NCBI GenBank assembly: GCA_002377585.1
Contig: DFQC01000007.1
Location: forward strand, 2,706 to 66,705
Length of the DNA: 64,000 bases
Origin: Anaerolineales bacterium UBA3499
GTDB lineage: Bacteria > Chloroflexota > Anaerolineae > Anaerolineales > UBA11657
Direction of reading: 5' to 3'
Part shown: positions 13,833 through 48,958 of the stretch, piece after piece
Position numbering within the stretch: the first letter of the stretch is position 1
Layout: the number at the start of each line of letters is the position of its first letter
Notes under the pieces: generated by a model
Told to the model about the DNA's origin: nothing
The model's input: the letters and a program-made list of their open reading frames with translations, nothing else
The model's database searches: none
Position numbers and translations under genes: made by a program

Positions 13833-14813
13833 TCAAGAAAGCGCTCTTTCTACTATCTGCAAGAATTTCTCTGTAGATATCTCAGTCACCAAATTTGCGT
13901 TTGGTGTTTTGCCACTAAAACCCATCCAATCCACCATTGATTGGCCGCGAGACAGTCCAGATGCAGTTTCAACTGTGACGTATCGCTGTTCAGATCTTGT
14001 GATGACATCTGATTCAAGAACTACTGCTATTGCTATTGGATCTGGAGCATAAAATATCCTTTCTCCAGCAGAACCTTCTACGCTGTAGCCTTCCTCTTTG
14101 CTTACTAAAAAGCTTTCTATGCTGGCCAGCGTTTTTCTTGAAATCTTTTCAAAAAATTTAGCTCGCTTTGAATCTATAGCAAACAATCTGCTGAGATTAT
14201 TTGCATCAATTGGGTGAGCTAGACTTATCTCCCAGTCAACAATTGTAACCATCGGCCATCTAGATAGCACCATTCTAGCTGCTTCGGGATCACGATAGAA
14301 GTTGTATTCCGCAGTGTAATTGCTAGTGTTGCCTTGGGCTCTTATGGCACCACCCATTATGGTTAAGCTACGATATTTTTCTGGTAAGCTAGGGTCAAGC
14401 ATTAGTGCCACAGCTATGTTTGTTAATGGACCTAATGCTACAAGGTCTAGTGCCCCTGCATATTTGTTCCCATATGAACATATGGCTTCAGCTGCGTGAC
14501 CATTTACAGGCTCAATCGATGCTGGTGGAATATCAGCGTCACCAATGCAGTCACCAAGACCATCGTTGCCATGAAACCCTGCTGCGTCTTCAACTGGATT
14601 ATCTAGCAGTGAATCACCACAACCCACGTATATTGGTGCATCTATATCTAATATCTCAACCAATTTGCATGCATTTTCAGTAGTGTGTTCTAGATCTACG
14701 TTGCCAGCAACAGTAGTAATAGCTTTTATTTCTGTGTCGGGATGTGCGCTGGCCATCATAATGGCTAGAGCATCGTCGACACCAGGATCTGTATCTATTA
14801 GTAAGGTTTTCAT
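13833..14813 (-). CDS. Nucleoside hydrolase NH1 (IUNH family)
   Basis: N-terminal [12 protein letters not shown] (DxDxxxDD) and GPLTNIA. The position of the leaving-group His reads YAPDPIAIA, so His is replaced by Pro. Confidence 0.85.
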   Translation of the reverse strand: MKTLLIDTDPGVDDALAIMMASAHPDTEIKAITTVAGNVDLEHTTENACKLVEILDIDAPIYVGCGDSLLDNPVEDAAGFHGNDGLGDCIGDADIPPASIEPVNGHAAEAICSYGNKYAGALDLVALGPLTNIAVALMLDPSLPEKYRSLTIMGGAIRAQGNTSNYTAEYNFYRDPEAARMVLSRWPMVTIVDWEISLAHPIDANNLSRLFAIDSKRAKFFEKISRKTLASIESFLVSKEEGYSVEGSAGERIFYAPDPIAIAVVLESDVITRSEQRYVTVETASGLSRGQSMVDWMGFSGKTPNANLVTEISTEKFLQIVERALS

Positions 14814-14873
14814 TAGGTTTCTCCTGTATTAGGTGTCATCTCGATCATAGTTCTTTCTTGTGCACTAGAGATG

Positions 14874-15875
14874 TTAACCGAACAATTCGAGTATCTGGTC
14901 TGTTTCGCGCTTGTTCTTATCTTGACTGTTTATGGAAGCAAGGTATGCAATTAGTTCCTCTGTGCCTGGCAGCTTGGTGCCAGCTCCCCATACTGTGGTG
15001 GCAAGTGCGCCAAGTACATTAGCAAGCATACCGGTTGCTCTAATATCTATTTTGGATAGCCACCCCAAAATTATCCCAGCTGTGAATGTGTCGCCCGCCC
15101 CAGTTGTATCAATGGTCTTTACCTTATACGATGGTAGCGTTATACATTCGTCTGAATTAGCCAAGACACATCCTTTACCACCCAATTTTACCGCTACTAG
15201 TTCTGGTCCCTGGGATAGGATTTTCTGAGCTATAGTGTGAGGATCACTGTGGTCAACCAAATAACAGGCCTCTTCATATCCTAAAATACATATATTGAGC
15301 TTCGGTATTACTGCACGGATATCTGAGGTGCTGTCAAACACTGGTCTAATGCTAGTGTCCATACTTATAGGAATATCATTTGATTGCGCAATATCTATAG
15401 CATTCAGCAATGTAGGTCTATTCGAAGAGCGAGTTAAAGGGTGGCCGGTAACCTGTAGCATATCTGTGTTAGATATTATGTGAAGTGGGAATTTATGAGT
15501 GTTATCCCAAATGTTGGCGCCCCATGCATTGAAAAAAGTTCGTTCTCCTCCTTTGCTTACTACAGCAAAATTAAGTCCTGTTTTTACTCCTGGTAGTACG
15601 GATACTCCTGATATGTCTACTCCGGTTTGCCTAAAAGCTTTAGCTGCTAAATTCCCCCAGTTGTCGTCCCCAATACAACCTATGAGCTTAGCGGTTACGC
15701 CGAGCTTAGATAGTGCGATTGCAGTATTGCCTACAACTCCACCAGTTTCAACACTATATGAGGGGGCCCCGGCATCATCTCCCTCTTGAGGATATTTATC
15801 TATAGGCATCGTGACATCTACATTTATAGGCCCTAGTAGACACACACTTGCTGGTAAGCGAAGTTTGGGTGTCAT
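14874..15875 (-). CDS. PfkB/ribokinase-family kinase K1
   Basis: DTTGAGDTFTAG anion-hole/catalytic motif and an N-terminal GPINVD sugar-lid region. It overlaps the upstream TrpF-like gene by 4 nt. Confidence 0.8.
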   Translation of the reverse strand: MTPKLRLPASVCLLGPINVDVTMPIDKYPQEGDDAGAPSYSVETGGVVGNTAIALSKLGVTAKLIGCIGDDNWGNLAAKAFRQTGVDISGVSVLPGVKTGLNFAVVSKGGERTFFNAWGANIWDNTHKFPLHIISNTDMLQVTGHPLTRSSNRPTLLNAIDIAQSNDIPISMDTSIRPVFDSTSDIRAVIPKLNICILGYEEACYLVDHSDPHTIAQKILSQGPELVAVKLGGKGCVLANSDECITLPSYKVKTIDTTGAGDTFTAGIILGWLSKIDIRATGMLANVLGALATTVWGAGTKLPGTEELIAYLASINSQDKNKRETDQILELFG

Positions 15876-16546
15876 GTACTAGTATTACCTCTTGCAGCCT
15901 CACAGAAATTGGCAATGCGAACCATGTCTTTACGTACTTTATCCCCTTCAATATTGGTAGATGTGTTGCTATCTACTCCCCATGGCTGTACTGTCTGGAT
16001 TGCCTCGAGTACATTCTCACTAGAGAGTCCACCAGCCAATATCACAGGACATTTGACCTTTTCGACTATTTTCTTGCTGATATTCCAATCGTGTGTTTTC
16101 CCAGTGGCGCCTACTCCGGGCAATCCAGAAACTTTTGTGTCCAGTAAGAGATAGTCGCATGTAGTGGAGAATGCTTCAGCAAGGTCGATACTATTGTTAC
16201 CTTCGACTGGCAGTGCCTTCATTAATTGTGTCTGTGAGCCTAGCCTGATCCGTAAATCTCTCATAGCTTGTACATCCAAATCAAAAGGATCAGTTGATAT
16301 ATGTACTATGTCGGGTCTCACGAATTGTGCCATGGCCACAATTTCTTCAATGTCAGTAGACATAGTTAGTGCAACGGAAGTGCTAATTCCGCTTACGGCA
16401 TTTACAATGCTAGCAGATGTTTCCAGACTAAGTTCACCATACACTTTGCCGTAATCTCCAGCTACGAATCCAATTTGATCCACACCTAGATTTGCAGCGG
16501 TAATAGCATCCTTAGCGTTTGAGAAAGCATAAATTTGAATAATCAT
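15872..16546 (-). CDS. TrpF-like (phosphoribosylanthranilate isomerase fold) protein A
   Basis: GATGKTHDW, PVILAGGLSSENV and YLLLDT are TrpF-like. The N-terminus reads MIIQIYAFS where TrpF has K-I-C-G, so the general-base Cys is replaced by Tyr. No trp genes are nearby. Confidence 0.65.
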   Translation of the reverse strand: MIIQIYAFSNAKDAITAANLGVDQIGFVAGDYGKVYGELSLETSASIVNAVSGISTSVALTMSTDIEEIVAMAQFVRPDIVHISTDPFDLDVQAMRDLRIRLGSQTQLMKALPVEGNNSIDLAEAFSTTCDYLLLDTKVSGLPGVGATGKTHDWNISKKIVEKVKCPVILAGGLSSENVLEAIQTVQPWGVDSNTSTNIEGDKVRKDMVRIANFCEAARGNTST

Positions 16547-16698
16547 GAATAATTGTATTGTCAGTATTTACTTATGTATTATACTTGTGCTCCAGAATTT
16601 GCTTCTCGATTGTTATCTGAAATTGTTCTCTTACCAACATCAAATTTAAGTTTGTGTGTGAGTGAAAAGTTGGAGTAGAGATAATCATCATGTTATAA

Positions 16699-16776
16699 GT
16701 ACAACAATTGCGCGAACGTTCGTTGGCGGATATCTTACTAACCCAATCGGATAGTTATCACAGTCAATAGTTGTAC
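16699..16776 (+). promoter_or_regulatory. Inverted repeat plus palindrome in the divergent control region
   Basis: The arms gtacaacaattg (16699..16710) and caatagttgtac (16765..16776) match in 11/12 positions as an inverted repeat. The perfect palindrome cgaacgttcg (16713..16722) lies between them. The right arm abuts the AAGGAG Shine-Dalgarno sequence of the GTG start at 16791. Confidence 0.3.
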
Positions 16777-16790
16777 AAAGGAGTATTAAA

Positions 16791-17756
16791 GTGAGCACTA
16801 AGATTATCATGGATGTAGATACAGGTACAGATGATGCGGTAGCTATTATGACTGCAGCATTATCTCCTGACATTGATCTGTTAGGTATCACCACAGTTAA
16901 TGGCAACTGTCCAGTAGAGATATGTACAGAGAATACTCTCCGGGTTGTTGACCATATAGGTGCAAAAATCCCTGTCTATCATGGTTGTAGCTTACCTTTG
17001 TCTGCTACCTTAACTCCTGGTAGAAAACCAAACATACCTGCTGTAGAACCACACACCATTCATGGTCATTATCTTGATTTACCTGCTGCTAGTTCAAAAA
17101 AGCAAGGTGCTACTGCAGTTGAGTGGCTGGTTAATACGTACTTAGAGTCAGATGGCGATATAAGCTTGGTACCAGTTGGTCCACTAACAAATGTTGCGAT
17201 GGCGATACGACAGGCTCCTGAAATATTGGATAAGATTCCGGAGATAGTAATCATGGGTGGCGGGCACCATGTTGCAAATTGCACTTCATCTGCGGAATTT
17301 AATATCTGGGTAGATCCTGAAGCAGCCCGTGTTGTTATGAATTGTGGTCGTCCTATTAGATTAGTAACACTTGATGCAACACACGAAGCATTGTTTACAA
17401 TGGAAACATGTGACGCTTTGAAAAAAATAGGGACCCCAGCTGCTGTTTGTGCTGCGGCTTTTGCTGAGGTTCGTATTTCTGCTTATGATAAAGCGCAGCC
17501 CATGGCATCAGCTGGAAGCGCTCCTATCCATGACGCCTTAGCAGTATGTGCAATTATTAATCCCGAAGTGATATCGACTGTATATGCACATGTCGATGTT
17601 GAGACTATGGGTGAGTTAACGGATGGTCGTACGGTAGTTGACATCGATCGATCTGGTGACCGAGGTCGTCGACCTCCAAATGCTCATGTTGCATTGCATG
17701 CAGACGAAGAGCTTTTCGTTGAAATGATGTTGGATATTTTATCTAATGAGATCTGA
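16791..17756 (+). CDS. Nucleoside hydrolase NH2 (IUNH family)
   Basis: DVDTGTDDAVAI, GPLTNVA, and the catalytic-His context APIHDALAV. GTG start with an AAGGAG Shine-Dalgarno sequence. Confidence 0.85.
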   Translation: MSTKIIMDVDTGTDDAVAIMTAALSPDIDLLGITTVNGNCPVEICTENTLRVVDHIGAKIPVYHGCSLPLSATLTPGRKPNIPAVEPHTIHGHYLDLPAASSKKQGATAVEWLVNTYLESDGDISLVPVGPLTNVAMAIRQAPEILDKIPEIVIMGGGHHVANCTSSAEFNIWVDPEAARVVMNCGRPIRLVTLDATHEALFTMETCDALKKIGTPAAVCAAAFAEVRISAYDKAQPMASAGSAPIHDALAVCAIINPEVISTVYAHVDVETMGELTDGRTVVDIDRSGDRGRRPPNAHVALHADEELFVEMMLDILSNEI

Positions 17757-17827
17757 ATGTTCGCATTTATGTTTATTGCGGACCTACAAAAATATATAAG
17801 CATAAGTTTTGGAGGCGATGTTGCATT

Positions 17828-18676
17828 ATGAGCACTAAAGATAAGAATAGCAAAGTACGTGTCAGAGGTGAGAGTTCGATTAATCCTGGAATATTTACTG
17901 GCAAGAAATTGGTGTATGGGATGATACATTTGCTACCACTGCCAGGGACCCCATTTTATCAGTCTGGAAATGTAGAAAAGTCGCTCGAAAAAGCTATTGC
18001 TGATGTAAAGGCATTAATTGCTGGCGGTGCTGATGGTTGTGTTGTTCAGACTATTGACCAAATCTATCCAGTGGGTCAAGATGTGGACCCTGCTAGACTT
18101 GCTGCGTTTGCCATCATAGTGAAAGCAGTCAAAGAACATAGCCCTAAAGATTTCCATGTAGGTGTACAGATCCTATGGAATGCATTGGAAGCTTCCTTGG
18201 CTGTAGCAAAAATATGTGGTGGTGTGTTTGTTCGATCTAATGCACTTGTAGGCTCTACAATGACTGCTGCTGGTGTGGCTGAATCAGACCCTATTAGCCT
18301 TGTCGAATACAGAAATAAGATTGATGCACATGATGTGTCATTGTTGGCGGAAATTGAGAGTATGCATTTTAGTTGGTTGAACGGTAAGCCACTTGTTGAT
18401 GTGGCAGCAGAGGCTATTAGAGTTGGTACAAATGGTGTGGAGATAGCTCATCCTGAAGAGGACGTTTGTTTGTCTATGATTGCCCAACTAAAAGACAAGT
18501 ATCCAGAGTTACCAGTTATTGTAGGTGGTCATACCAATCACGAAAATGCTGCCAGAATTTTAGCCCAAGCTGATGGGGCGCTTGTTGGGTCATGTTTTGA
18601 ACCTCAAGGTTGGGGTTCAAATGTAGACGCAAGTAAGGTGGCTGAATATGTTGATATAGTGAGTAATATTAGCTAA
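17828..18676 (+). CDS. BtpA/SgcQ-family TIM-barrel protein
   Basis: YGMIHLLPLPGTPFY is the hallmark N-terminal segment of the BtpA family. 282 aa. Confidence 0.7.
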   Translation: MSTKDKNSKVRVRGESSINPGIFTGKKLVYGMIHLLPLPGTPFYQSGNVEKSLEKAIADVKALIAGGADGCVVQTIDQIYPVGQDVDPARLAAFAIIVKAVKEHSPKDFHVGVQILWNALEASLAVAKICGGVFVRSNALVGSTMTAAGVAESDPISLVEYRNKIDAHDVSLLAEIESMHFSWLNGKPLVDVAAEAIRVGTNGVEIAHPEEDVCLSMIAQLKDKYPELPVIVGGHTNHENAARILAQADGALVGSCFEPQGWGSNVDASKVAEYVDIVSNIS

Positions 18677-18752
18677 TATAGATGATGGATAGATTTTATG
18701 CTTACTAAGCATAGTTTGTGGTCGTGGAAAACACCAGTAAAAGAGGGCTGAT

Positions 18753-19169
18753 ATGGATGTAACTGTAGCTCTAGCTGTAGTAGCAATGATTGGAATGGGG
18801 ATTAATTCTTTCGGTAACAAACTAGGAGCTGCGCAAGGGGTTTATGCGCCTCCTTTTCTACTTATTATAAATATAATGTACTGTGTTGCGGCTCTAGTGC
18901 TTCATGTTGTTCAGAAACAACCATTTATAATATCATCGAAGATGATTGGTCTAGCTTTGTTAATTGGTTTATGTGGATCTATAAGTTACGTGAGTATGTT
19001 TACAGCATTTGAGTTAGGTGGAGAGGGCAGCATACTGTTTCCGATCAGAGGATTATCGGTTGTAGTTGCTGTTGTACTATCGATACTCTTTTTTAAGGAG
19101 CCAGTGACTCTTAATCGTCTGTTGGGATTAACTTTAGGTGTCAGTTCGATATTGATATTGTCACGCTGA
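18753..19169 (+). CDS. Half-size DMT/EamA-like membrane transporter (138 aa), paralog of 42..458
   Basis: Same length and same motif positions as 42..458 (FELGGEGSI, FFKEPVT, ...LILSR). Confidence 0.6.
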   Translation: MDVTVALAVVAMIGMGINSFGNKLGAAQGVYAPPFLLIINIMYCVAALVLHVVQKQPFIISSKMIGLALLIGLCGSISYVSMFTAFELGGEGSILFPIRGLSVVVAVVLSILFFKEPVTLNRLLGLTLGVSSILILSR

Positions 19170-19223
19170 ACAATGTTTTGTTGAATACATATACTAGGTG
19201 GTCAGTGTCACAGAGATAATCAA

Positions 19224-19898
19224 GTGAAGATACAGATATATAGTCATAAAACCCCCGAGGATGTATCTGCCAGTGTCGAATTAGGAGTTGATTTCATTGG
19301 CGTTGCTACCGGTGAACTTGGTAGGCTTCCTGACGAAGTGTCTTATTCTATGTGTGGAACTATCTTTTCATCTGTACCGACAGAATCTAATGTTAGCAAG
19401 GTGGCTCTTACAGTGGCTAGCGAGCTTGATGAGATTGTTGAAACAGTGGTTAAGACCAATCCAGATGTAATACATCTTTCAGGTGATATTAGCGCTATGT
19501 CAGTACAAGATGTAGCAGAATTACGGCGTGCAGTACCGGACACAAAAATCATGCAAGCCATTCCAGTAAAGGATGATGCTTCGATTAGTCTATCTTTAGA
19601 ATATCAACTTGTATCTGATTATATTATTTTGGATACTGATATCGAATCATATACTGGTATTGGCGCTACCGGTAGCACACATGATTGGAGTGTAAGTCGT
19701 AAGATTGTAGCTGCCGTAAATATACCTGTAATATTGGCAGGAGGACTAAGTCCAGAAAATGTAGCGGATGCTATTAAGCTTGTTAGACCTTGGTGTGTAG
19801 ATTCGTTTACACACACTAACATGGCTAATTCTAAACTCAAGGACCCTAACAAAATTCATCAGTTCATCAAATCGGCACGAAATTGGTCGCAAACCTAG
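19224..19898 (+). CDS. TrpF-like (PRAI fold) protein B
   Basis: 224 aa, alignable end to end with 15872..16546 (GATGSTHDW, PVILAGGLSPENV, YIILDT). The N-terminus MKIQIYSHK again has Tyr in place of the TrpF Cys. GTG start. Confidence 0.65.
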   Translation: MKIQIYSHKTPEDVSASVELGVDFIGVATGELGRLPDEVSYSMCGTIFSSVPTESNVSKVALTVASELDEIVETVVKTNPDVIHLSGDISAMSVQDVAELRRAVPDTKIMQAIPVKDDASISLSLEYQLVSDYIILDTDIESYTGIGATGSTHDWSVSRKIVAAVNIPVILAGGLSPENVADAIKLVRPWCVDSFTHTNMANSKLKDPNKIHQFIKSARNWSQT

Positions 19899-20866
19899 AG
19901 TCAGGTACGGTAGTTATACTGGGTGATGCCTGTGTAGACATGGTTGTAAAGTCTGACAGGGATTCTACAGGGAAGGAATTAAAAACTAGGCCAGAGCTTA
20001 CTTGTGGAGGATCAGCTGCTAATACAGCAATGATCTTGTCACAATTGGGTGTTTCTGTGGCGTTTGTCGGAGCTGTAGGAAGAGATGCTTTTGGCAATAT
20101 AGTTACTGGAAGTTTGTCGGCATCTGGAGTTGATATCTCTAAGTTGATACAGATTGATAATGCATATACAACTGTTGTCATAGCTGTTGTATATTTTGAT
20201 GGCACACACACTATGAAAGGCTGGCCAGTAGATGGTGGTGCTGACCTAATGCTTGAATCAAGCCACGGTGATATTAGTGTTTTCAATAACCCTATATGGT
20301 TGCATAGTACTGGTTTATCTATTGTAAAGGATCCTGCCAGAGAAACAGTGTTGCGTGCTATGTACTGTGCGCGGAGCGAAGGTGTGCCCGTATCATTTGA
20401 CCTAAACATGCACGGAAGTTTAGGTCACATAGATGGAGTGCTAAAAAGCCAGTATGAGCATGATCTTAGAGAGGCCATCGAATTGTCAGATTGTGTTTTC
20501 GGATCAGCAAGTGACGAGATTGCCTTATTGTATCCAAATGAAAATATGAATCAGGCAGCCAGAGAGCTTGCAGGTATGAACCGTACGGCTATATCTCGGA
20601 GAGGTGAACTTGCAGCAATTTGTGTATCCGGCCGAGAATTAATTGAGTCCAAACCGTTTCAAGTTGACACAGTTGATGCCATTGGTGCAGGAGATGCTTT
20701 CAACGCTGGATTTATAGCAGCGCAGTTGGAAGGTTTGTCTATTGATAGATCTTTGCAGTGGGGACATGCCACCGCGGGTCTAAGTATTAAGACAGTTGGT
20801 TCAGGCGGTAAATTTAATAGGACTGATGTATTAAGGTTTATAGAACAACAATCGAAGTTGGTGTAA
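19883..20866 (+). CDS. PfkB/ribokinase-family kinase K2
   Basis: VVILGDACVDMVV N-terminus and DAIGAGDAFNAG motif. The TTG start overlaps the TrpF-like gene by 16 nt. Confidence 0.8.
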   Translation: MVANLESGTVVILGDACVDMVVKSDRDSTGKELKTRPELTCGGSAANTAMILSQLGVSVAFVGAVGRDAFGNIVTGSLSASGVDISKLIQIDNAYTTVVIAVVYFDGTHTMKGWPVDGGADLMLESSHGDISVFNNPIWLHSTGLSIVKDPARETVLRAMYCARSEGVPVSFDLNMHGSLGHIDGVLKSQYEHDLREAIELSDCVFGSASDEIALLYPNENMNQAARELAGMNRTAISRRGELAAICVSGRELIESKPFQVDTVDAIGAGDAFNAGFIAAQLEGLSIDRSLQWGHATAGLSIKTVGSGGKFNRTDVLRFIEQQSKLV

Positions 20867-20877
20867 GGACATTAATC

Positions 20878-21858: not shown

Positions 21859-21903
21859 AACAATTATCTGTTCACAAGCATCTTGTGGAATCAACGTTGT
21901 TGC

Positions 21904-23022: not shown

Positions 23023-23386
23023 ACTTGCTCACCCATTAATATTTTAGTGTGTAAATAACCCGTCAGTATAAACGTTATTAATTGGCTTTAGTCAAATCAC
23101 CGTTAATTTTGAGTGGAAGGGTTCTGGTCTTTGTGATAAAATGTGAATGCTATCGCGCTGTTCAAATTTAGTTTTCATAGATTAAATTCGGCATGCGCGT
23201 CTAATTCTTCGAGGAGGTGCTAGGACTATAAGCCAATAGGAAAAAAAAGGGTTTACTAAAGATGGAGATAACTAACTTGTTAGTTATTAATGATTTTTTA
23301 GAGTTTAAATGGGGGAACGTGGTAAGAAGTAACTGTGAAGCAAATATGTAAAACACTGTCAAAAGTATTACATGAGGAGAATAGTT

Positions 23387-24796: not shown

Positions 24797-24835
24797 TAGA
24801 GGGGTAGCAGCTAACTAATAATTGCTACTTGTTGT

Positions 24836-25960: not shown

Positions 25961-25995
25961 TCCGATGAAAATTTTATTAATGGTCAAGTGATAAT

Positions 25996-40016: not shown

Positions 40017-40041
40017 TCAACACCTAGTATAATTTATACTT

Positions 40042-41825: not shown

Positions 41826-43318
41826 GAAAGTTCATTGCACCTATATTATTATCATTGTTTGGATTGATGACTATGGATACAAATGTGCGTATAGTAGCTG
41901 CTGAAACTAATGATGATGATAAAAGGGATTTGCCCGGTTTGGTTGACAAGACAGAAAAGCGGGAAGAGTTTGTTTACGGTGTTAATGCTTATAATGGTAC
42001 TTTATATCAAGGGGTTTTTCATCCACCTAGTGTTGATACAATATATTTACTCGCGGATACAATCAACATAATTTCTCCTCGTAAAACCCTGATTTATTAT
42101 TGGGCTGTTACAAACGAATACAAGGCTGATTTTGATAGTATGAATGAAGACCTACCAGGTGCTTTGGAGATAAGATTGAATGGCAATCTTGTACTCACAG
42201 TTGAGCCTACAGATTATGTCATTCAGTATCCTGAGGGAATTACACAAGGAGCAGCAGAAGTATATTTGGGTGGGGCTGCACAACGAAAATATGGTGAGTG
42301 GGAAGAAGCTCTGAAAGCATACCGATTGGAGGTTTCGGAATACTATGAGGCTTCACGTAATTGGCGTACTGAGCTAACTGACCGTGTTCAATCAGGAGAA
42401 GTCACTTCGGAAGATGATGTGCTTGTATCCCAACCTATGAGACCCGCTGATTTTCTGTACTCTAGTACTAAAGTCTTTCGAGGAGTACCGCTGAATTTGC
42501 CTTCTGGCAAATATGACATACAAATGCGCAATGATGAGGGAAAAATAGTAGCCGACAGCGTAAAGAAGCTCGTTGTATTTCAATCAGATAGAGTTGGTGT
42601 AGGATACACTGTTATTCCTGAAGATAAATGGACTACTCCAGAGCAAACATATAATCCCGGTGAGATGTTATATGTTCGATCTAATAACACACTTTACCTA
42701 GAACCTTTTTTCGAAAGTGAATACAACGAACAATATTTCACTCACTTGGAAGCACCACAAGCTCCGAATTTTGTGAACTCTGATTGGAAATGGGTTAAGG
42801 AGGATAACTTTAAAATCTCGGGTTCATCTAGGTGGGGAAGATCAGGAGATGCTGCTGATGTCACTTTTATTGGAGAACGTCGCCCTGGAAGACATATAAA
42901 TGACGAAGGCATAGGATATGATATGCAAGTCATCGAAAGAGGTATGATACAGGATCCAATTGAGTTTGAAGATTATATGGTTCGTCAGAATCCAGGTCAG
43001 GCACTAGGTTACGAAATTCTCGAGGCAATGGAAGGATTGTCTCAAGGGATGCGTGAACGCGCACCTGATTTTTCAGCATTTGAAATAGTTGTTCGGAGAT
43101 CGCTTCAAGATCTTCAAGTGAATTTACAGGGAGATGACGGTGCTATTCTAGGTGGTAGTACTAGAACAGTAGATGTGGTCAGGGGAACTGGATCCACCAA
43201 TCTTTTTCTTGCTTTGATTCTGCCAATTGCACTAGGAATACTAATGGTTGGATATAGACGATACAGCTTAAAGATACATCGAGAGAAACTTGCGTCCGCA
43301 ACAATAGAAAATAGTTGA
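41822..43318 (+). CDS. Hypothetical exported protein with C-terminal membrane anchor (498 aa)
   Basis: N-terminal signal-like helix (ILLSLFGLMTM) and a C-terminal helix NLFLALILPIALGILMVGY followed by RRY. I recognised no motif. It is coupled to the ABC-2 permease. Confidence 0.5.
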   Translation: MRKFIAPILLSLFGLMTMDTNVRIVAAETNDDDKRDLPGLVDKTEKREEFVYGVNAYNGTLYQGVFHPPSVDTIYLLADTINIISPRKTLIYYWAVTNEYKADFDSMNEDLPGALEIRLNGNLVLTVEPTDYVIQYPEGITQGAAEVYLGGAAQRKYGEWEEALKAYRLEVSEYYEASRNWRTELTDRVQSGEVTSEDDVLVSQPMRPADFLYSSTKVFRGVPLNLPSGKYDIQMRNDEGKIVADSVKKLVVFQSDRVGVGYTVIPEDKWTTPEQTYNPGEMLYVRSNNTLYLEPFFESEYNEQYFTHLEAPQAPNFVNSDWKWVKEDNFKISGSSRWGRSGDAADVTFIGERRPGRHINDEGIGYDMQVIERGMIQDPIEFEDYMVRQNPGQALGYEILEAMEGLSQGMRERAPDFSAFEIVVRRSLQDLQVNLQGDDGAILGGSTRTVDVVRGTGSTNLFLALILPIALGILMVGYRRYSLKIHREKLASATIENS

Positions 43319-43400: not shown

Positions 43401-43435
43401 TTGACTTTTTTGGCCACAATGACAAATATTTGTCA
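43401..43435 (+). promoter_or_regulatory. Candidate promoter with overlapping perfect 16-bp palindromic operator
   Basis: TTGACT (43401..43406) is followed, with a 17-18 nt spacer, by aaatat/aatatt. The perfect palindrome tgacaaatatttgtca (43420..43435) ends immediately before the ATG at 43436. No Shine-Dalgarno sequence is present, so the mRNA may be leaderless. Confidence 0.35.
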
Positions 43436-44383
43436 ATGAAACTATTAACTATCAGTGATTTGTGTGCAGATTTAGTGGTTCCCATTGACGAGTTACCATT
43501 ACGTCCAGGTAAACATCAGCTATCTAATCAGCGTTTGTTTGTAGCTGGAGGAACTAGTAATACTTTAATAGTTGCTGCTCGTTTGGGTTTGGATACACAT
43601 GCAGTAGGTGCAGTGGGTGATGATTGGTTGGGAAAAATGGTACTACAACAACTACGTGATGAAAATGTGTCGACCAATCATGTACAGGTTGTTCCTGATG
43701 CCACCACTACTTTATCTGTAGAGTTAGTAGACAATAGGGCACGACATGTTTTTGTTGGCGCTTTAGGTGAAGGTACAACTGTAGAACTATCGACCGATAT
43801 AGATACCATATTGTCTGATATAGAAGCTGTGTTTTGTACTAGTTATGCATTGGCTAGTCATTCGCTTTTTAGTTGTTTGGATAGTTTGGATATTCTCAAA
43901 TATGCTCATAGATGTGCAGTACCGACTTTTTTTGATTTGGGTCCTGCTGCGTTTTCAATGGATCGGGAAATTGTTGAGCAAGCAATAAATGTTAGTACTG
44001 TTGTATTCACTACTATGGAGGAACTAATTGGTTGGACAGGAAGTAGTGACAAGATACAGGCTACCAACGAGATTTTTGGTGTAGGAGCTGAGATAGTGGT
44101 CATAAAATGTGGTAAGGAAGGTTGTCTTATAATGTCTTCCGACGAAGACATTATGTTAGACGGTTTTGAAGTTACAGTCTGTGATACTGCTGGTGCTGGT
44201 GATGCATTTGCTGGCGCGTTTATCTTTGGGTATTTAAACAAATACAGTCTTACTGAATCTGGTACTATAGCTAATGCTGCTGGAGCTATTACAGTAACTC
44301 GTGTCGGTACTGGCCCTTATGTTGCACAGTGTGTTGAGATATTTGATATGCTAGAGTCGTATGGTGTAACATTCAGCGAATAA
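43436..44383 (+). CDS. PfkB/ribokinase-family kinase K6
   Basis: LLTISDLCADLVV N-terminus and DTAGAGDAFAGAF motif. I prefer the ATG at 43436 over the TTG at 43430. Confidence 0.8.
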   Translation: MKLLTISDLCADLVVPIDELPLRPGKHQLSNQRLFVAGGTSNTLIVAARLGLDTHAVGAVGDDWLGKMVLQQLRDENVSTNHVQVVPDATTTLSVELVDNRARHVFVGALGEGTTVELSTDIDTILSDIEAVFCTSYALASHSLFSCLDSLDILKYAHRCAVPTFFDLGPAAFSMDREIVEQAINVSTVVFTTMEELIGWTGSSDKIQATNEIFGVGAEIVVIKCGKEGCLIMSSDEDIMLDGFEVTVCDTAGAGDAFAGAFIFGYLNKYSLTESGTIANAAGAITVTRVGTGPYVAQCVEIFDMLESYGVTFSE

Positions 44384-44424
44384 ACTGTTGCGATTCTTAC
44401 AACAAAATTGTGAGGTTCAATAAT

Positions 44425-45477
44425 ATGGAAATTGCATATAGTATTCCGAAAAGTGAACTACATTTACATCTTGACGGGTCGTTGGACACAGGATTTATCG
44501 CGGCGTGCGCCGCAAATAGAGGTATAGAATTACCGGTTGAACCCGCAGATGTTAGAGAATATTTACATGATTTGAAGAGCAAACGATCGCATATTGCTAG
44601 TAAAGTGTCAGGTTCTTCAAATTGGTCAAACTTTGATTTTTGTAATCAATTTTTACAGACGACAGATGAACTTAGAGAGGCTACGTTTTCTCTATGTGAG
44701 ACTTTAATCGCTGATAATGTGGTGCTAGCTGAGATTCGTTTTTGTCCGGAACTTCACACTAATGAGGATTTGACAGTAAATGATGCTGTTGATGCTGTGG
44801 TGTCTGGCTTTCGCGAAGCGGAGCAAACTTTAAATATGAGAGGTGGTGTGATTGTTTGTGCATTGCGCTCCTACCCTGTAGAACACACACTTGAAATGGT
44901 GGAATTAGCATCAGCTTGGCTTGGTCAAGGAGTCATAGGATTTGACATAGCTGGTGATGAGGGTGCTTTTGCATTAGATATACATGCATCTGGTATAAAA
45001 GAGGCTCTGCGTAGGAATGTACCAATGACTTTACATGCAGGAGAATGGCCGGAAGATACTGTCAAAAACATAAAATTGGCTGTAGATTTAGGTGCGGATC
45101 GCATAGGTCATGGGGTTACTCTATGTCAGGATCCTAAACTCATGAAGCTAGTGGCAGAAAAGGGTATTACTGTCGAATGCTGTTTGACAAGTAATGTGGG
45201 ATGGAAGGTGCCATCTTATGGAGTTCATCCTATCAGAAATATGTTCGAAGCAGGAGTAAAAGTTTGTATAAATTCGGACAATTTGTTGTTATCGGGAACT
45301 TTCGATCGTGCTGCATACTCAAGTGGAGAAGTACAACGATTAGTAGACGATGTCGGTTTTAGTTGGGAGCAAGCGAGACAGGTTTTGCTTAATGGTGTTA
45401 AGGGTTCTTTTAGTGCCGGAGTAGATGAAGATTGGATTTCTCAATATGAACAAAGATTGGATGAAATTTTGCCGTAG
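44425..45477 (+). CDS. add: Adenosine/adenine-deaminase-family protein (variant TDD motif)
   Basis: SELHLHLDGSL, GFDIAGDE, LHAGE and RIGHG are present. The usual (S/T)DDP reads INSDNLL, so the second Asp is replaced by Asn. The ATG at 44425 has a GAGG Shine-Dalgarno sequence. Confidence 0.75.
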   Translation: MEIAYSIPKSELHLHLDGSLDTGFIAACAANRGIELPVEPADVREYLHDLKSKRSHIASKVSGSSNWSNFDFCNQFLQTTDELREATFSLCETLIADNVVLAEIRFCPELHTNEDLTVNDAVDAVVSGFREAEQTLNMRGGVIVCALRSYPVEHTLEMVELASAWLGQGVIGFDIAGDEGAFALDIHASGIKEALRRNVPMTLHAGEWPEDTVKNIKLAVDLGADRIGHGVTLCQDPKLMKLVAEKGITVECCLTSNVGWKVPSYGVHPIRNMFEAGVKVCINSDNLLLSGTFDRAAYSSGEVQRLVDDVGFSWEQARQVLLNGVKGSFSAGVDEDWISQYEQRLDEILP

Positions 45478-45507
45478 ATACTCAATCAAGTAGGTTTAGC
45501 TAAAATC

Positions 45508-46200
45508 ATGGATCATTTCAAGAATATTTATAGCAATATGGCATGTGAATATCATCGTATGATTGAATATGAAGATGTTGATGGCAATCTATATGATTGC
45601 ATTGACAAACTTCTGACTGCAGATGTTAGTAGGGTTCTGGACATAGGAAGTGGAACTGGAAGAATCCCATTGTTGTTGTCGGACCCAAGATTTACTGTTG
45701 TTGGACTAGATTTGTACTGGGAAATGCTAAAAGAAAATGTGCGTCAGCGCAGTTTGTCTGCTGGTTCGTGGTTGCTGTCGCAGGGCAGCGCAGAAGCGCT
45801 TCCAATGTCACCAGATTGTTTTGATGTTTTAACTGCAGGCTGGGTGTTGGGGCACACATGCAGCTGGCACTCGGATTGGCAAACAGAGCTGGATATAGTA
45901 TTAAAAGAAATGCATCGTGTGGTTCGCGATCAAGGGGTTATAATAATCATGGAGACTCTGACTACTGGTAGTGTCATACCTTCTCCACCAACAGCAGAAT
46001 TGTCAGACTATTATGATTGGCTTGAAAACTCATGGGCCTTTTCTCGGCAGGAAATTAGAACAGACTATAGGTTTCCTGATGTGAAGGAAGCAATTAGCAA
46101 TACTGAGTTTTTTTTCGGAGAACAACTTAGTAGTATGATTGTTGACAATAATTGGAGCCGTGTTCCAGAATGTACAGGCATTTGGAGTAAAATTGTATAA
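45508..46200 (+). CDS. Class I SAM-dependent methyltransferase
   Basis: VLDIGSGTGRIPLLL (motif I). 230 aa. Confidence 0.7.
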   Translation: MDHFKNIYSNMACEYHRMIEYEDVDGNLYDCIDKLLTADVSRVLDIGSGTGRIPLLLSDPRFTVVGLDLYWEMLKENVRQRSLSAGSWLLSQGSAEALPMSPDCFDVLTAGWVLGHTCSWHSDWQTELDIVLKEMHRVVRDQGVIIIMETLTTGSVIPSPPTAELSDYYDWLENSWAFSRQEIRTDYRFPDVKEAISNTEFFFGEQLSSMIVDNNWSRVPECTGIWSKIV

Positions 46201-46248
46201 GAATATTCATTGTAGTTTGGCAAACTCACCTAAGGCTTGGGTAATTAT

Positions 46249-47166
46249 ATGAGTGTTGTTGTATACGGTAGCATCAATACTGACTTGATTGCTTACACTC
46301 CAAAGCTTCCACAGTGCGGAGAGACTTTGCTTGGGAAGTCCTATCTTATGGCTCTAGGAGGCAAAGGTGCAAATCAGGCCGTAGCTGCTGCAAAACTAGA
46401 TGCAAATGTAAGTATGGTGGGACATGTAGGTGATGATACATTTGGTCTCCAAGTACTAGAACAACTGACTGATTATGGTGTAGATGTGTCCAGTGTTGAA
46501 ATGGTTTCTGACCAAGGTAGTGGCTTGGCTGTGATTAGTGTGGACGACAATGGAGAAAACACAATTATTGTTTTGTCAGGAGCTAATATGCAGTTTGATC
46601 GGCAAGATGTTAACCGCACTGAGAGCCTATTTGACGATACTAAAGTTTTACTTTTACAACTGGAAGTTCCGGTTGAAGCAGATTTAGCAGTTGCACGTGC
46701 AGCGCATGCTAAGGGTATTACGGTGGTTTTGGATCCAGCCCCAGCAGCAGAATTGCCAGAGGAGTTGTATGGTGCGGTTGATATTTTGACCCCAAATGAG
46801 GTGGAGACTGAAATGATGGTTGGTATACGACCTTCTTCACAGGAAGAAGCTGCCGAAGCTGCCAGGATACTACAAAGTCGTGGGGTCCATACAGTTATTG
46901 TCACACTTGGTTCTGAAGGAGTATTTTGTGCATCAGGTACTAGAAGTATCTATGTACCAGCGTTTGATGTAGATGCTATTGATACTGTCGGTTCAGGTGA
47001 TGCATTTAATGGTGGACTGGCAGTAGCAATTTCAGAAGGCCTGGAGATTGATGAGGCTCTTCATTGGGGCGCAGCTGCAGGTGCGCTTAGTACGACTCGT
47101 TCGGGTGCAGCCGGAGCTATGCCTGATCGAGCTGAATTGATTAGTCTTATATCTAGTAGTAGGTAG
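46249..47166 (+). CDS. rbsK: Ribokinase
   Basis: VVVYGSINTDL, GGKGANQAVAAAKL and DTVGSGDAFNGG match canonical RbsK. I prefer the ATG at 46249. Confidence 0.8.
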   Translation: MSVVVYGSINTDLIAYTPKLPQCGETLLGKSYLMALGGKGANQAVAAAKLDANVSMVGHVGDDTFGLQVLEQLTDYGVDVSSVEMVSDQGSGLAVISVDDNGENTIIVLSGANMQFDRQDVNRTESLFDDTKVLLLQLEVPVEADLAVARAAHAKGITVVLDPAPAAELPEELYGAVDILTPNEVETEMMVGIRPSSQEEAAEAARILQSRGVHTVIVTLGSEGVFCASGTRSIYVPAFDVDAIDTVGSGDAFNGGLAVAISEGLEIDEALHWGAAAGALSTTRSGAAGAMPDRAELISLISSSR

Positions 47167-48958
47167 TTCGTATCACTGGCTGAAACAACTGAGTTTGTTT
47201 TGCGCATACTGGATCTAGTGCGCAGCATTTGCAATCAGGCTCACTCATTTCAGGACATCCTTTCCGCATTCTGAACAAGAGTTGGTCCACAGCAACCATG
47301 TTAAGATTTGGCGATGTATCTACTAACATGTTGATTGCCTTATATACGTTTTGGCGGACATCATATTCTTGTTCTTCACTTACCAATTCGCGTCTTGTAA
47401 TTTTTTGCTGAAGGTAGGTGTCAGAAACACTCACCATACCAGTGCGTAATGCGGTACGCATGAGGTGATAATCAATACATGGAAGTTCTTCTTCAGAATC
47501 CCCAAGTTGTAAAAAGTTCTCAGGTCGATTTAATAGTATATATATTAGCAAAGCAGATTTTTTTTGTAACGGGTCATTTTTGTATCCGCCAATATTCCAT
47601 AAAATTCTTAGTAAATCGGCCATTGGTGTCTTGGAAATTTGGGTTTTTTGGATCATTTTGGCAGGTGTCATGCCTAAATCTGACATATCTTGACCATAAG
47701 ATTGAGCCTCGGACAAATGCAGCTCGATTGCTGGCATAGGACAGTGTCCGTCATCGTCAGCTAAAATCATTTCTAATTCCTCTTTAGAAAGATTTGCTTG
47801 CCTATTGACGCTGAAGAAGTCGGGATCACTATCTAGCATCCGCAAATAAGCAGCCCCTATGTAATCAGACCCTTTGCGTTCATGCCCGTCTATTTTTGCT
47901 ATCATAGGCGCAACATATTTATCATTGTTTTTGGTCCAGAATCCAAATTGCTGCAAAGTTAACGCAAAGAAAAAGTCCAATGCGTTGGGATGTCCTACAG
48001 CAGGTTGTCCTATTCCGGTAAATGTATAAGGCAATTCATCAGCCTCTTCTGTTTCCATGACCTTAGCAATTTGTCTGATTCTGTTAGTATTTATCGACGC
48101 TTGTGAAGCGGAGTCAGTTGGTGTTGTGCTTACCTGTTGCATTAGACCCTCAGTGCCTAAATGACTTACAGTTACTTCGGCGATCTTTGCAGCTTGTTTG
48201 GCAGCCTGTATTGGATGTTCTAATTTACACAAATAGGATAATACCGCTCCGCAAAATGAATCGCCGGCTCCAGTTGGGTCTCGAGGGTTGATTGGTTGGA
48301 TTGGTATTCGCTGCCGATCATTGCCTTGAATTATACTTACTCCATTTTCTCCATGTGTAACAAAAAGTATGGTACCGGTTGGCGAACAGATATTTTTTGT
48401 AGGACCTAAATTGTTTGCTGCTTCATGTTCATTCATGAAGCATAAATCTGCTTGTTCAATTAGTATGGATAACTTTTCTTTGTGATTGTCTTGTAGATTG
48501 TGTCCTCCACTGACTGAAATGTTCTGTGCTTTGTTATCCCGGCATTTTTTTAGCATTTTTAGTTGTACGTCAATATTGCCCAGTTGTACGATATGTACAT
48601 ATGTGTAACTTGAGAGATCTGAAGGTATGTCATTTTCAGACATGAGTGATTCGGATCTGGGTTCCACAGTAGTGTATTTAGCCGTCCCGCTATCATCATA
48701 TTCAATTGCGAAATGTGGTAGTTCATCCTGACTAACTGTTGGACCCAACCAGTTTATTAATTTGTTGATAGGTTGCATTAGTAGAGGCATGGGGCTTGGC
48801 AGAGGAGCCAACATGTCCACTTGACCGCCAGCTGCTCGAGCTCCTAATGCGGTGTAAAGACCTGCACCCCCCGTAGTGTGGATATATTTTTCATTGATAT
48901 GTAGGATGTCTTGTGAAGCTCCACCAATTACGAGTATTTTGTTCATATTGTTGTGCAT
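47153..48958 (-). CDS. Fusion protein: N-terminal PfkB kinase (K8) plus a C-terminal QNG1/DUF2419-like N-glycosylase domain with a terminal 4-Cys motif
   Basis: The first ~290 residues are PfkB (ILVIGGASQDILH, DPTGAGDSFCGA). The C-terminal ~300 residues carry, in order, ...LTLQQFGFW..., GSDYIGAAYLRML, DPLQKKSALL, CIDYHLMRTALRTGMV, EYDVRQN, VDQLLF and the end ...VIRTTYY, which I recall as QNG1-family landmarks. An inserted motif CPEMSEPDCKCCALDPVC has C-x7-C-x2-C-x5-C spacing. Confidence 0.6.
   Translation of the reverse strand: MHNNMNKILVIGGASQDILHINEKYIHTTGGAGLYTALGARAAGGQVDMLAPLPSPMPLLMQPINKLINWLGPTVSQDELPHFAIEYDDSGTAKYTTVEPRSESLMSENDIPSDLSSYTYVHIVQLGNIDVQLKMLKKCRDNKAQNISVSGGHNLQDNHKEKLSILIEQADLCFMNEHEAANNLGPTKNICSPTGTILFVTHGENGVSIIQGNDRQRIPIQPINPRDPTGAGDSFCGAVLSYLCKLEHPIQAAKQAAKIAEVTVSHLGTEGLMQQVSTTPTDSASQASINTNRIRQIAKVMETEEADELPYTFTGIGQPAVGHPNALDFFFALTLQQFGFWTKNNDKYVAPMIAKIDGHERKGSDYIGAAYLRMLDSDPDFFSVNRQANLSKEELEMILADDDGHCPMPAIELHLSEAQSYGQDMSDLGMTPAKMIQKTQISKTPMADLLRILWNIGGYKNDPLQKKSALLIYILLNRPENFLQLGDSEEELPCIDYHLMRTALRTGMVSVSDTYLQQKITRRELVSEEQEYDVRQNVYKAINMLVDTSPNLNMVAVDQLLFRMRKGCPEMSEPDCKCCALDPVCAKQTQLFQPVIRTTYY

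Follow-up and report, generated by a model that had tools for sequence, protein, structure and literature searches.

Riboside scavenging loci that resemble polysaccharide utilisation loci (PULs) and carry ribokinases, nucleoside hydrolases (NHs) and ADP-ribosylglycohydrolases (ARHs) are already described in Bacteroidetes. These ribose utilisation systems (RUS) contain one or two ribokinases together with nucleoside hydrolases, some also ADP-ribosylglycohydrolases and a permease; they are reported in about 70 configurations of up to 36 genes, and the reading offered is that they obtain ribose from a variety of nutrients that contain it (Glowacki et al., bioRxiv 10.1101/574913). The cassettes yegTUV of E. 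coli and stm4065-4067 of Salmonella combine an NHS transporter, an ARH and a PfkB kinase, the former being itself functionally uncharacterised (PMC10819704). Ribose salvage by Rih/IunH and RbsK pairs one Ca-dependent hydrolase with a ribokinase. Kinase-then-glycosidase routes include PsuK/PsuG for pseudouridine and QNG1 for queuosine-5'-monophosphate, the substrate of QNG1 being a 5'-monophosphate (PMC9881137). In frl and fra, a SIS deglycase (FrlB/FraB) is paired with a PfkB kinase (FrlD/FraD).

These systems can be compared with a conserved block of ~47 kb (1306-48958) in a marine Anaerolineales (Chloroflexota) bacterium. The window, i.e. the whole 64-kb stretch of DNA analysed, was assigned with Pfam and NCBIfam equivalog cut-offs for ORFs of at least 90 aa. 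The block encodes six hydrolases of the IUNH family, eight proteins with a PfkB domain and one ARH, besides a homologue of adenosine deaminase, a CUT1 ABC importer and an MFS transporter. The HMM assignment upholds the gene families listed in a preliminary description, including its count of six IUNH, eight PfkB and one ARH. Apart from one deaminase and one half-size transporter, the genes that it placed within 13833-48958 are there, but the start has to be moved, as synteny extends the block leftwards to 1306. This extension takes in a molybdenum hydroxylase and a ring-degradation operon. The reported lack of a phosphorylase, DeoB/DeoC and a regulator holds for the whole 64-kb window, where no ORF of at least 90 aa matches PNP_UDP_1, DeoB or DeoC (Pfam) or has a DNA-binding or transcription factor domain. 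Translational coupling is likewise borne out by 4-bp overlaps at seven junctions (an ATGA overlap of NH3 and the ARH among them), and the packing is operon-like. Promoter and terminator scans returned sites no commoner than in shuffled sequence, and therefore do not define transcription units. All locus genes are intact, with full-length Pfam domain matches.

Like RUS, the Chloroflexota locus is large and enzyme-diversified, with a ribokinase, NHs and an ARH. Unlike RUS, it has neither SusC/SusD nor an adjacent regulator, its uptake would rely on a Gram-positive-style lipoprotein substrate-binding protein (SBP) with ABC, MFS and EamA components, and it holds far more NH (6) and PfkB (8) paralogs. 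It also adds SIS, PRAI-like, BtpA, M42-like, Mo hydroxylase and ABC-2 exporter genes; with the M20 and 2OG-oxygenase genes, these contradict the earlier label of a “purely hydrolytic-plus-kinase” system. The riboside-harvesting part of the proposed nucleoside analogue of a PUL remains likely, but given the RUS precedent it is not a new idea (bioRxiv 10.1101/574913).

PF01156 is matched over its full length by all six NHs (269-338 bits, Pfam), each with the DxDxGxDD motif. NH1 (13833-14813, (-)) and NH2 (16791-17756, (+)) are assigned by Pfam, NCBIfam and residue alignment, NH3 (27020-27964, (+)) and NH4 (29043-29963, (+)) by Pfam and orthology, and NH5 (29992-30939, (+)) and NH6 (30951-31901, (+)) by Pfam and residue alignment. 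The Ca-dependent IUNH fold and intact DxDxxxDD are shared with Rih/IunH, and the catalytic Ca-site residues are identical in all six, whereas the leaving-group position varies: the residue preceding the Ca-binding Asp is Pro in NH1, His in NH2-4 and Gly in NH5 and NH6. Unlike Rih/IunH with RbsK, there are six diverged hydrolases with three leaving-group variants in place of one hydrolase. Pairwise identity is 28-38%, except for NH5/NH6 (58.5%). None of the six reaches the RihA, RihB, RihC or UriH equivalog cut-off (NCBIfam), and specificity is not readable from sequence. The suggestion of substrate-diversified hydrolases fits the old, diverged paralogs with their differing leaving-group residues, but no Rih/UriH assignment backs it. 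NH3 directly precedes the ARH in Anaerolineales and Caldilineaceae loci, and NH4 comes after it in related loci.

The ARH (27961-29046, (+); Pfam 183 bits) is of the YegU type, with 29% identity to E. coli YegU over its full length (E 2e-38); among solved structures, MJ1187 and ARH3 come closest. The correct start codon is the ATG at 27961, which creates the overlap with NH3. A PfkB gene lies within 10 kb in 67 of 80 ARH loci, and ARH-PfkB adjacency recurs across phyla, often beside nucleoside-type transporters; the neighbours in Vibrio and Providencia are Tsx, Bmp ABC, 5'-nucleotidase and ADA. All three families of yegTUV and stm4065-4067 share the Chloroflexota locus, which in contrast to yegTUV has no GntR regulator. 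Its ARH has NHs on either side and is linked to SIS proteins, neither of which the E. coli cassette contains. On sequence grounds, the ARH-PfkB pair at the core of the locus is of the uncharacterised yegUV type, which is widespread across phyla.

The eight PfkB proteins all contain PF00294, at pairwise identities of 20-33%. GAGD kinases are K1 (14874-15875, (-)) and K2 (19883-20866, (+)), both by Pfam and NCBIfam, K4 (33955-34902, (+); Pfam, orthology) and K6 (43430-44383, (+); Pfam). In the PfkB-fold proteins K3 (33047-33958, (+)) and K5 (39075-40016, (+)), assigned by Pfam and motif, GAGN replaces the catalytic GAGD; since the catalytic Asp is missing, these two are possibly not kinases. K7 (46237-47166, (+)) is a bona fide ribokinase, as in RbsK salvage (TIGR02152, 340 against a cut-off of 299.65), and the only one of the eight to reach the ribokinase equivalog cut-off. 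The eight PfkB signatures noted before are all real, but a kinase role is doubtful for K3 and K5. K8 (47153-48958, (-); Pfam, structure model) combines a nucleoside-kinase-like PfkB domain with a glycosylase domain of the QNG1 (DUF2419) fold, so that the QNG1-like glycosylase previously listed exists, not as a separate gene but as the C-terminal half of K8. This fusion recalls the PsuK/PsuG and QNG1 routes, and PsuG, LOG/SLOG and SIS domains occur as fusion partners in relatives of the locus PfkBs. The modelled C-terminal domain matches QNG1 with TM 0.74 (E 2e-9); it differs in its ~16% identity, an additional C-terminal four-Cys motif and a Pfam score of 24.9, just under the cut-off of 25. 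The partner of K4 is SIS2, and the K4 type occurs in proteobacterial ARH-SIS-PfkB triads.

Block synteny is seen in L002, L003, L008, L089, L093, L095, L098 and L099, and the gene order is shared with independent marine ENA, JGI, Tara and UBA assemblies at 64-99% identity. Paralog types hold their positions in related Anaerolineales, Caldilineaceae and Thermomicrobiales loci; position-specific orthologues comprise the NH3, NH4 and NH6 types, the K4-SIS2 pair, and K5 with U389/YjbQ. Judged by their sequences, the divergence of the NH and PfkB paralogs is old, and they are neither recent duplicates nor pseudogenes.

Further enzymes, on the plus strand unless stated, surround this core. SIS1 (31923-33050) and SIS2 (34929-36077) are double-SIS proteins resembling the GlmS isomerase domain (Pfam, NCBIfam). 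Both PRAI-like barrels (15872-16546, (-), and 19224-19898; Pfam, residue alignment) lack the TrpF catalytic Cys, which in the first is replaced by Tyr, the Asp being kept. A BtpA/SgcQ-family TIM barrel (17828-18676) and an M20 PepT-like hydrolase (21883-23022) are assigned by Pfam and NCBIfam; a 2OG-Fe(II) oxygenase (20878-21858), a YjbQ/UPF0047 protein (37457-37861) and a class I SAM methyltransferase (45508-46200) by Pfam. The oxygenase gene is variable, being absent from L002 and L008. U389 (36188-37357) has no Pfam match; its family profile matches 1ylo (E 2e-5) and marks it as a divergent M42-like metallohydrolase, fused to a GAGN-PfkB in P0353. Roles given to SIS, BtpA, YjbQ, U389 and U498 are guesses.

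The CUT1-type importer (23372-26913, (+); Pfam) consists of a lipoprotein SBP (23372-24796, lipobox LLLGAC) and two permeases (25028-25960 and 25996-26913), with no ATPase gene for it within the locus. The MFS transporter (37912-39072, (+); Pfam) is MFS_1_like/nucleoside:H+ symporter-like. These two systems were correctly described, but of the two half-size EamA/DMT transporters one lies inside 13833-48958 (18753-19169, (+); Pfam) and the other upstream (42-458). An ABC-2 exporter region (40042-43318, (+); Pfam), missing from the earlier inventory, encodes a DrrA-like ATPase (40042-40986), a permease (40983-41825) and U498 (41822-43318), a signal-anchored extracytoplasmic protein; this trio is kept in Caldilineaceae and Thermomicrobiales loci.

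Both deaminases reported earlier exist, but just one is inside 13833-48958, the adenosine-deaminase family protein ADA (44410-45477, (+); Pfam; TIGR01430, 216.7 against a cut-off of 216.55). Upstream, the TRZ/ATZ (MtaD/DadD-like) amidohydrolase (11231-12565, (-); Pfam) is probably a nucleoside or base deaminase; its best NCBIfam score, 421 bits, falls short of the cut-off of 609 and leaves it without an equivalog. Next to it lies an M20 ArgE/DapE-type deacylase (12588-13829, (-); Pfam, NCBIfam). The molybdenum hydroxylase genes (1306-7398, (-); Pfam) encode a 2Fe-2S subunit (1306-1800), an FAD subunit (1800-2678) and two different large subunits (2704-5055 and 5068-7398), reach no NCBIfam equivalog cut-off, and accompany the NH1 operon in conserved order in L093, L095, L098 and L099. 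Methyltransferase, SDR, glyoxalase-fold, cyclase/arylformamidase-like and M29-like proteins (7477-11160, (-); Pfam, NCBIfam, synteny) form a putative aglycone degradation set.

It is reasonably likely that the locus is a conserved modular catabolic/salvage supra-operon by which marine Anaerolineales use nucleosides, whether modified or not, and other ribosides. Substrates would enter via the CUT1 importer, the NHS-like MFS transporter and EamA. The six Ca-dependent IUNHs, with their different leaving-group pockets, would cleave beta-ribosides, and the YegU-type ARH a riboside class that NHs cannot cleave, perhaps alpha- or O-linked and perhaps needing prior 5'-phosphorylation. K7 would convert free ribose to ribose-5-phosphate, and the remaining GAGD kinases would phosphorylate either modified riboses or whole ribosides; in K8, a GAGD-type kinase would be joined directly to a nucleotide glycosylase of the QNG1 fold. 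The resulting sugar phosphates could be isomerised or deglycated by the SIS, PRAI-like and BtpA proteins, while for released bases ADA and TRZ/ATZ could serve as deaminases, the M20 and M42-like enzymes as deacylases, the Mo hydroxylase as the oxidising enzyme and ABC-2 as the exit route.

The binding protein of the importer is of the oligosaccharide (CUT1) type and of no known nucleoside-binding type; its nearest solved relative, 6rjy (E 2.6e-13), binds arabino-oligosaccharides, i.e. furanosides. The NHs might accordingly be mainly beta-D-ribofuranosidases that harvest ribose from CUT1-imported O-ribosides or ribofuranose oligosaccharides, not from nucleosides, as Bacteroides RusNH is active on pNP-ribofuranoside and weakly on nucleosides (bioRxiv 10.1101/574913) and no NH reaches a nucleoside-hydrolase cut-off. 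This is unlikely, though the best placed of the alternatives, as ADA, the TRZ/ATZ deaminase, the Mo hydroxylase, the NHS-like MFS transporter and the QNG1-fold domain point to nucleobase aglycones, and the Pfam search of the window found no glycoside hydrolase families. Slightly less probable is utilisation of Amadori/glycation products (fructosamines/ribulosamines), in which the CUT1 importer, the PfkB kinases and the SIS proteins as deglycases would act on the model of frlBONMD or fra, with Amadori-type isomerisation by the PRAI homologues and amino acid release by M20 peptidases. Similarities to frl/fra include the CUT1 type of the importer, the 4-bp overlaps in SIS-PfkB pairs, a PfkB+SIS fusion (P0427), M20 and M42-like hydrolases, and SIS proteins that besides GlmS weakly resemble FrlB-like 3eua (E 8e-6). 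However, every locus kinase scores 32-70 bits with the fructoselysine-6-kinase model (cut-off 247), the catalytic Cys is missing from the PRAI-like proteins, and the ARH and six IUNHs share the tightly packed operons. Proteobacterial ARH-SIS-PfkB triads, moreover, adjoin nucleoside porins/transporters, 5'-nucleotidase and ADA.

The DrrA-like exporter, two methyltransferases and the 2OG oxygenase would suit a biosynthetic cluster for a nucleoside-type natural product, tailored by these enzymes and M20, with ABC-2 for self-resistance. Such a cluster is very improbable beside a high-affinity importer, six riboside-destroying hydrolases, a true ribokinase and base-degrading enzymes; the oxygenase is dispensable in relatives, and Pfam revealed no core biosynthetic enzymes (ligases, radical SAM enzymes, aminotransferases) among the window ORFs. 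The source is a metagenome-assembled genome, but an assembly or binning artefact, or a functionally meaningless recent tandem duplication, is hardly conceivable and is refuted by the independent assemblies, the paralog identities of merely 20-38% and the intact genes. Salvage of ribosides is the reading retained here: the locus most probably exploits ribose-linked compounds of many kinds, and this Chloroflexota system is built around a widespread, functionally uncharacterised enzyme pair, ARH-PfkB.

The locus is probably a modular system for the scavenging of ribosides, and its inventory largely bears out the preliminary description. In a Pfam scan of the substantial open reading frames, the six IUNH hydrolases reported there (NH1 to NH6, at 13833-14813 on the reverse strand, 16791-17756, 27020-27964, 29043-29963, 29992-30939 and 30951-31901) are all full-length PF01156 proteins, scoring 269-338 bits against a gathering cut-off of 34.2. 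The eight PfkB proteins (K1 to K8, at 14874 on the reverse strand, 19883, 33047, 33955, 39075, 43430, 46237 and, again on the reverse strand, 47153-48958) all score above the PF00294 gathering threshold of 25.8, at 64-234 bits. There is indeed a single ADP-ribosylglycohydrolase (ARH) in the locus, a full-length PF03747 match of 182.9 bits that in fact begins with the ATG at 27961, overlapping the NH3 stop. Translational coupling was likewise recovered, with a 4-bp overlap at seven gene junctions, and no phosphorylase, phosphopentomutase, DeoC or DNA-binding domain was found among the substantial open reading frames of the whole 64 kb. The proposed uptake genes, namely a lipoprotein substrate-binding protein (SBP, 23372-24796) with two permeases, an NHS-like MFS transporter and a half-size EamA transporter, were confirmed by Pfam, as was an adenosine-deaminase family protein; the same scan found no ATPase gene for the SBP/permease importer within the locus. 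The two deaminases and two half-size EamA transporters that had been counted all exist, but the second of each (11231-12565 and 42-458) lies upstream of where the locus had been taken to begin. The QNG1-like glycosylase is also present, but it makes up the C-terminal half of K8 and is not a separate gene. What had been overlooked is an ABC-2 exporter (40042-43318, including a signal-anchored partner protein). The characterization of the locus as purely hydrolytic-plus-kinase does not hold, for it also encodes two double-SIS proteins, two PRAI-like barrels, a BtpA/SgcQ barrel, two M20 hydrolases, the protein U389 and YjbQ.

GC content is uniform across the window (0.39-0.45). Genes for tRNA-Arg(GCG), tRNA-Ser(GCT) and tRNA-Ser(TGA) lie at 48982-49291 on the reverse strand, immediately beyond K8 at the right end of the block, with no integrase nearby. 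A genomic-island origin, raised by these flanking tRNAs, was dropped given the uniform composition and the absence of an integrase. At gathering threshold, Rfam matched nothing inside the locus, and in the rest of the window only tRNAs and a glycine riboswitch (58308-58417, reverse strand) that stands, in an ordinary arrangement, upstream of gcvH-gcvPA-gcvPB; a permissive scan of 16400-25100 gave no match in the locus either. Predicted sigma-70 promoters and terminators were no more numerous than in shuffled sequence and were therefore not used for operon definition. At the left edge, an isochorismatase/nicotinamidase-like hydrolase (549-1259), together with the half-size EamA gene at 42-458, adjoins the Mo-hydroxylase operon on the opposite strand.

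Conservation of the block was assessed using ARH homologues as anchors, with contexts taken from homologue-encoding contigs and a scan of species-representative genomes, and the genes in these contexts were annotated by means of HMMs derived from the proteins of the window. The nearest named relatives by ARH are marine metagenome-assembled genomes, an uncultured Anaerolineales (99% identity) and Anaerolineales UBA832 (87%). With about 150 members in the protein clusters of the locus genes, this Anaerolineales lineage has been sampled often. The homologous loci L002, L003, L008 and L089, from close relatives, share the order from NH2 to K8 with only the 2OG oxygenase missing. In Caldilineaceae, at about 60% ARH identity, the ABC-2/U498 trio and the U389-YjbQ-PfkB group are each kept together, and a third group runs SBP-permease-permease-NH-ARH-NH-NH-PfkB-SIS, followed by BtpA-PfkB-PRAI. 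Thermomicrobiales have the same parts in a changed order. Best-hit analysis indicates position-specific orthology: the hydrolase preceding ARH in Anaerolineales and Caldilineaceae loci is of NH3 type (49-73% identity to NH3, at most 40% to the other paralogs), those following ARH are of NH4 and then NH6 type, K4 pairs with the double-SIS protein SIS2 (34929-36077), and K5 pairs with U389 (36188-37357) and YjbQ (37457-37861). A metagenome scan with NH1 found the left half, which is divergent from NH2 and comprises Mo hydroxylase, SDR, glyoxalase, cyclase, M29, TRZ/ATZ, M20, NH1, K1 and PRAI1, to be equally conserved, down to 64% identity. Since the left half is conserved too, the conserved unit is taken from gene order to be about 47 kb (1306-48958). 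Among 80 ARH loci, at least three hydrolases per locus were found in Chloroflexota only.

Gene content varies by module among the relatives. L002 and L008 lack the 2OG oxygenase (20878-21858), which is duplicated in L098, and L096 is without the entire PRAI2-K2-oxygenase-M20 stretch. In L004 (8735-12334), the hydrolase preceding ARH is split, and the insertions around ARH comprise a DDE transposase and an EcoRV-like restriction-modification pair.

Several features of the importer and exporter regions were also recorded. The 349-bp gap 5' of the SBP gene contains two blocks that are also conserved in L002 and L008 (23105-23230), neither with an Rfam match. The first, AGTGGAAG-GTT...GTCTTTGTGATAAAATG, resembles an extended -10 element, and the second, AGGAGGTGCTAG, is located some 150 nt 5' of the start codon; together they may represent the importer operon's promoter and leader. 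The SBP carries a repetitive acidic linker, EVVEVIKEVPVEKIVEVEKIVEV, C-terminal to its lipobox (23372-23560). The signal-anchored partner of the exporter, U498 (41822-43318), belongs to no Pfam family; it has an N-terminal signal/anchor, an extracytoplasmic domain of about 430 residues and a C-terminal transmembrane helix, and in Chloroflexota loci it always comes after the ABC-2 ATPase and permease.

The paralogs are not near-identical recent duplicates. Pairwise identity is 28-38% among the six hydrolases, NH5 and NH6 being closer at 58.5%, and 20-33% among the PfkB proteins. The N-terminal DxDxxxDD motif and the downstream Ca-site residues are intact in all six hydrolases, whose alignment shows D7, D9, D13, D14, N38, E169, N171 and D258 (numbered as in NH1) without variation. 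The position preceding the last Ca-binding Asp, which we take to be that of the leaving-group His in characterised group I enzymes, is His in NH2-4, Pro in NH1 and Gly in NH5/6. No hydrolase passes the RihA, RihB, RihC or UriH equivalog models (best score 320 bits against a cut-off of 450). In the ARH family alignment, E32, T70, D71, D72, D302 and D304 are invariant and are presumably equivalent to the ARH3 metal ligands. The window's ARH falls below the cut-offs of the characterised subfamilies DraG (64.7 bits versus 337) and Tri1 (44.8 versus 490). Only K7 passes the ribokinase model TIGR02152 (340.3 against a cut-off of 299.65), whereas the other seven PfkB proteins score 47-134.

The catalytic GAGD-type motif is present in K1, K2, K4, K6, K7 and K8. 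In K3 (33047-33958) and K5 (39075-40016) it is replaced by GAGN, which is kept in all 16 readable orthologues. A search of 1.84 billion cluster representatives found GAGN in 43 of the best 50 and 88 of the best 150 matches. Because the orthologues share the motif and so many of these representatives carry it, the GAGN proteins form a genuine conserved clade and are not a product of decay. A natural fusion protein, P0353, joins a GAGN PfkB to a U389-like domain (28% identity over 358 residues, E 2e-40), matching the conserved U389-YjbQ-K5 neighbourhood. Other fusion partners of this PfkB type are class I methyltransferases and an alpha/beta hydrolase, and GAGD relatives occur naturally fused to PsuG, LOG/SLOG or SIS domains.

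The architecture of K8, PfkB followed by Q_salvage in about 595 residues, is widespread in Anaerolineae. Against PF10343 (QNG1/DUF2419), K8 scores 24.9 with a cut-off of 25 and covers only 122 of 285 positions, and the K8 family profile matches QNG1 7ugk (E 9e-7). Foldseek with the full K8 model returned kinases alone among the best 50 matches, and the C-terminal domain was therefore modelled separately. This model (pLDDT 84.5) matches the QNG1 crystal structures 7u1o, 7ugk and 7ulc (TM 0.74, E 2e-9), the next best match being MutY (TM 0.44), and the domain is thus predicted to have the QNG1 fold. For the kinase half, the nearest match is the M. jannaschii nucleoside kinase. At the C-terminus of the K8 family (47153-47260), four invariant Cys (C-x7-C-x2-C-x5-C) are followed by an invariant FQPV-R-T--Y tail; the Cys spacing resembles what we take to be that of the 4Fe-4S loop of EndoIII and MutY. 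In the parts of the QNG1 structure paper that were consulted, no such four-Cys motif is mentioned; the substrate of QNG1 is queuosine-5'-monophosphate, made by an unidentified kinase, and a C-terminal tail that ends in Tyr occupies the active site (PMC9881137). The invariant K465/K466 and D495 of the K8 family, spaced like K199 and D231 of StQng1, are candidates for the catalytic HhH Lys and Asp. K8 appears to be a salvage enzyme attached to the locus only locally, since in a more distant relative the K8-type fusion is found outside the hydrolase locus, among TenA, PNP-family, deaminase and ECF-transporter genes.

The pairing of ARH with a PfkB kinase extends beyond the Chloroflexota and is close to universal, a PfkB gene lying within 10 kb of ARH in 67 of the 80 ARH loci. 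ARH-SIS-PfkB triads occur in Providencia, Vibrio, Kosakonia and Nitrospirillum. In Vibrio and Providencia, genes for a 5'-nucleotidase, a KdgM porin and a GntR/UTRA regulator and a phytase-like gene adjoin the triad; Vibrio additionally has Tsx and a Bmp-type ABC system there, and Providencia has an MFS transporter and an ADA-like gene. In enterobacteria, the arrangement is MFS-ARH-PfkB, which is that of yegTUV. Over its full length, the ARH of the window shares 29% identity with YegU, and like yegTUV the locus holds a YegU-like ARH, a PfkB kinase and an NHS-type transporter together; unlike in Providencia, Vibrio and E. coli, an adjacent GntR/UTRA repressor is absent from the window. The function of yegTUV was still unknown as of 2024 (PMC10819704), and no newer literature on it was found.

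Riboside scavenging was weighed against use of Amadori products, harvesting of O-ribosides or glycans, natural-product biosynthesis and an assembly artefact, the last of which is excluded by independent assemblies. The Amadori reading touches the double-SIS proteins (SIS1, 31923-33050, and SIS2), which resemble the GlmS isomerase domain and, weakly, FrlB; the window's PfkB proteins differ from the frl pathway in scoring 32-70 bits against the fructoselysine 6-kinase model NF007321 (cut-off 247). ADP-heptose-type chemistry, suggested by SIS with PfkB, was rejected, the SIS proteins being double-domain and GlmS-like, not GmhA-like. The PRAI-like barrels (PRAI1, 15872-16546, and PRAI2, 19224-19898) are 42% identical to each other. 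Compared with TrpF (PF00697), whose catalytic Cys we place in beta-1 and catalytic Asp in beta-6, they keep the LLDT Asp but have Tyr at the place of the Cys, with N-termini reading QIYSHKT or QIYAFSN versus KICGIT. Judged by their neighbours, they are unlikely to serve as the TrpF of the tryptophan pathway, because each is paired with one PfkB and one hydrolase. U389 is a divergent M42-like metallohydrolase with invariant His, Asp and Glu residues, its family profile matching 1ylo (E 2e-5); a single-sequence PDB search returned noise only.

In literature on ARH with PfkB and SIS, and on nucleoside hydrolases in Anaerolineae, this locus was not found described. Conceptually, it comes nearest to the ribose utilisation systems of Bacteroidetes (RUS), which likewise join a ribokinase, variable riboside-cleaving enzymes and a permease, although the window locus diverges in transport, paralog number and accessory chemistry. 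The earlier idea of a nucleoside counterpart to a polysaccharide utilisation locus (PUL) thus has a precedent in RUS and is not new, and the PUL-defining SusC/SusD pair and adjacent regulator were not found in the window.

In the scavenging pathway that we infer, ribosides would be taken up by the ABC, MFS and EamA systems and cleaved by the six hydrolases, with their different pockets, and by ARH. Ribose would be trapped by K7, and the other kinases, K8 explicitly, would act on a kinase-then-glycosidase route. Sugar phosphates would be handled by the SIS, PRAI-like and BtpA proteins, and aglycones by the deaminases, the M20 and M42-like hydrolases, the Mo hydroxylase and the ABC-2 exporter. 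A bolder and rather doubtful extension is that the whole locus is built on a hitherto undescribed kinase-first logic for unusual ribosides, in which a PfkB protein would make the 5'-phosphoriboside and a dedicated glycohydrolase, either the YegU-type ARH or the QNG1-fold domain of K8, would split it, as PsuG and LOG do elsewhere. If true, this would give the phylum-spanning yegUV pair a function, make a PfkB nucleoside kinase the 'unidentified kinase' of queuosine salvage, and cast the GAGN clade, fused to U389 in nature, as a non-canonical partner enzyme or sensor.

The locus is chiefly of value for the comparative context it offers on three questions, namely the function of the orphan ARH-PfkB pair of the yegUV type, the missing queuosine kinase upstream of QNG1, and the GAGN clade of PfkB proteins, in which the catalytic Asp has been lost. 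Its six diverged hydrolases and several kinases are a ready panel for the discovery of modified-nucleoside substrates. As a large, diversified and conserved locus, probably for riboside harvesting, outside Bacteroidetes and in an often-sampled marine Chloroflexota lineage, it bears on the oceanic turnover of dissolved nucleosides and ribosides.
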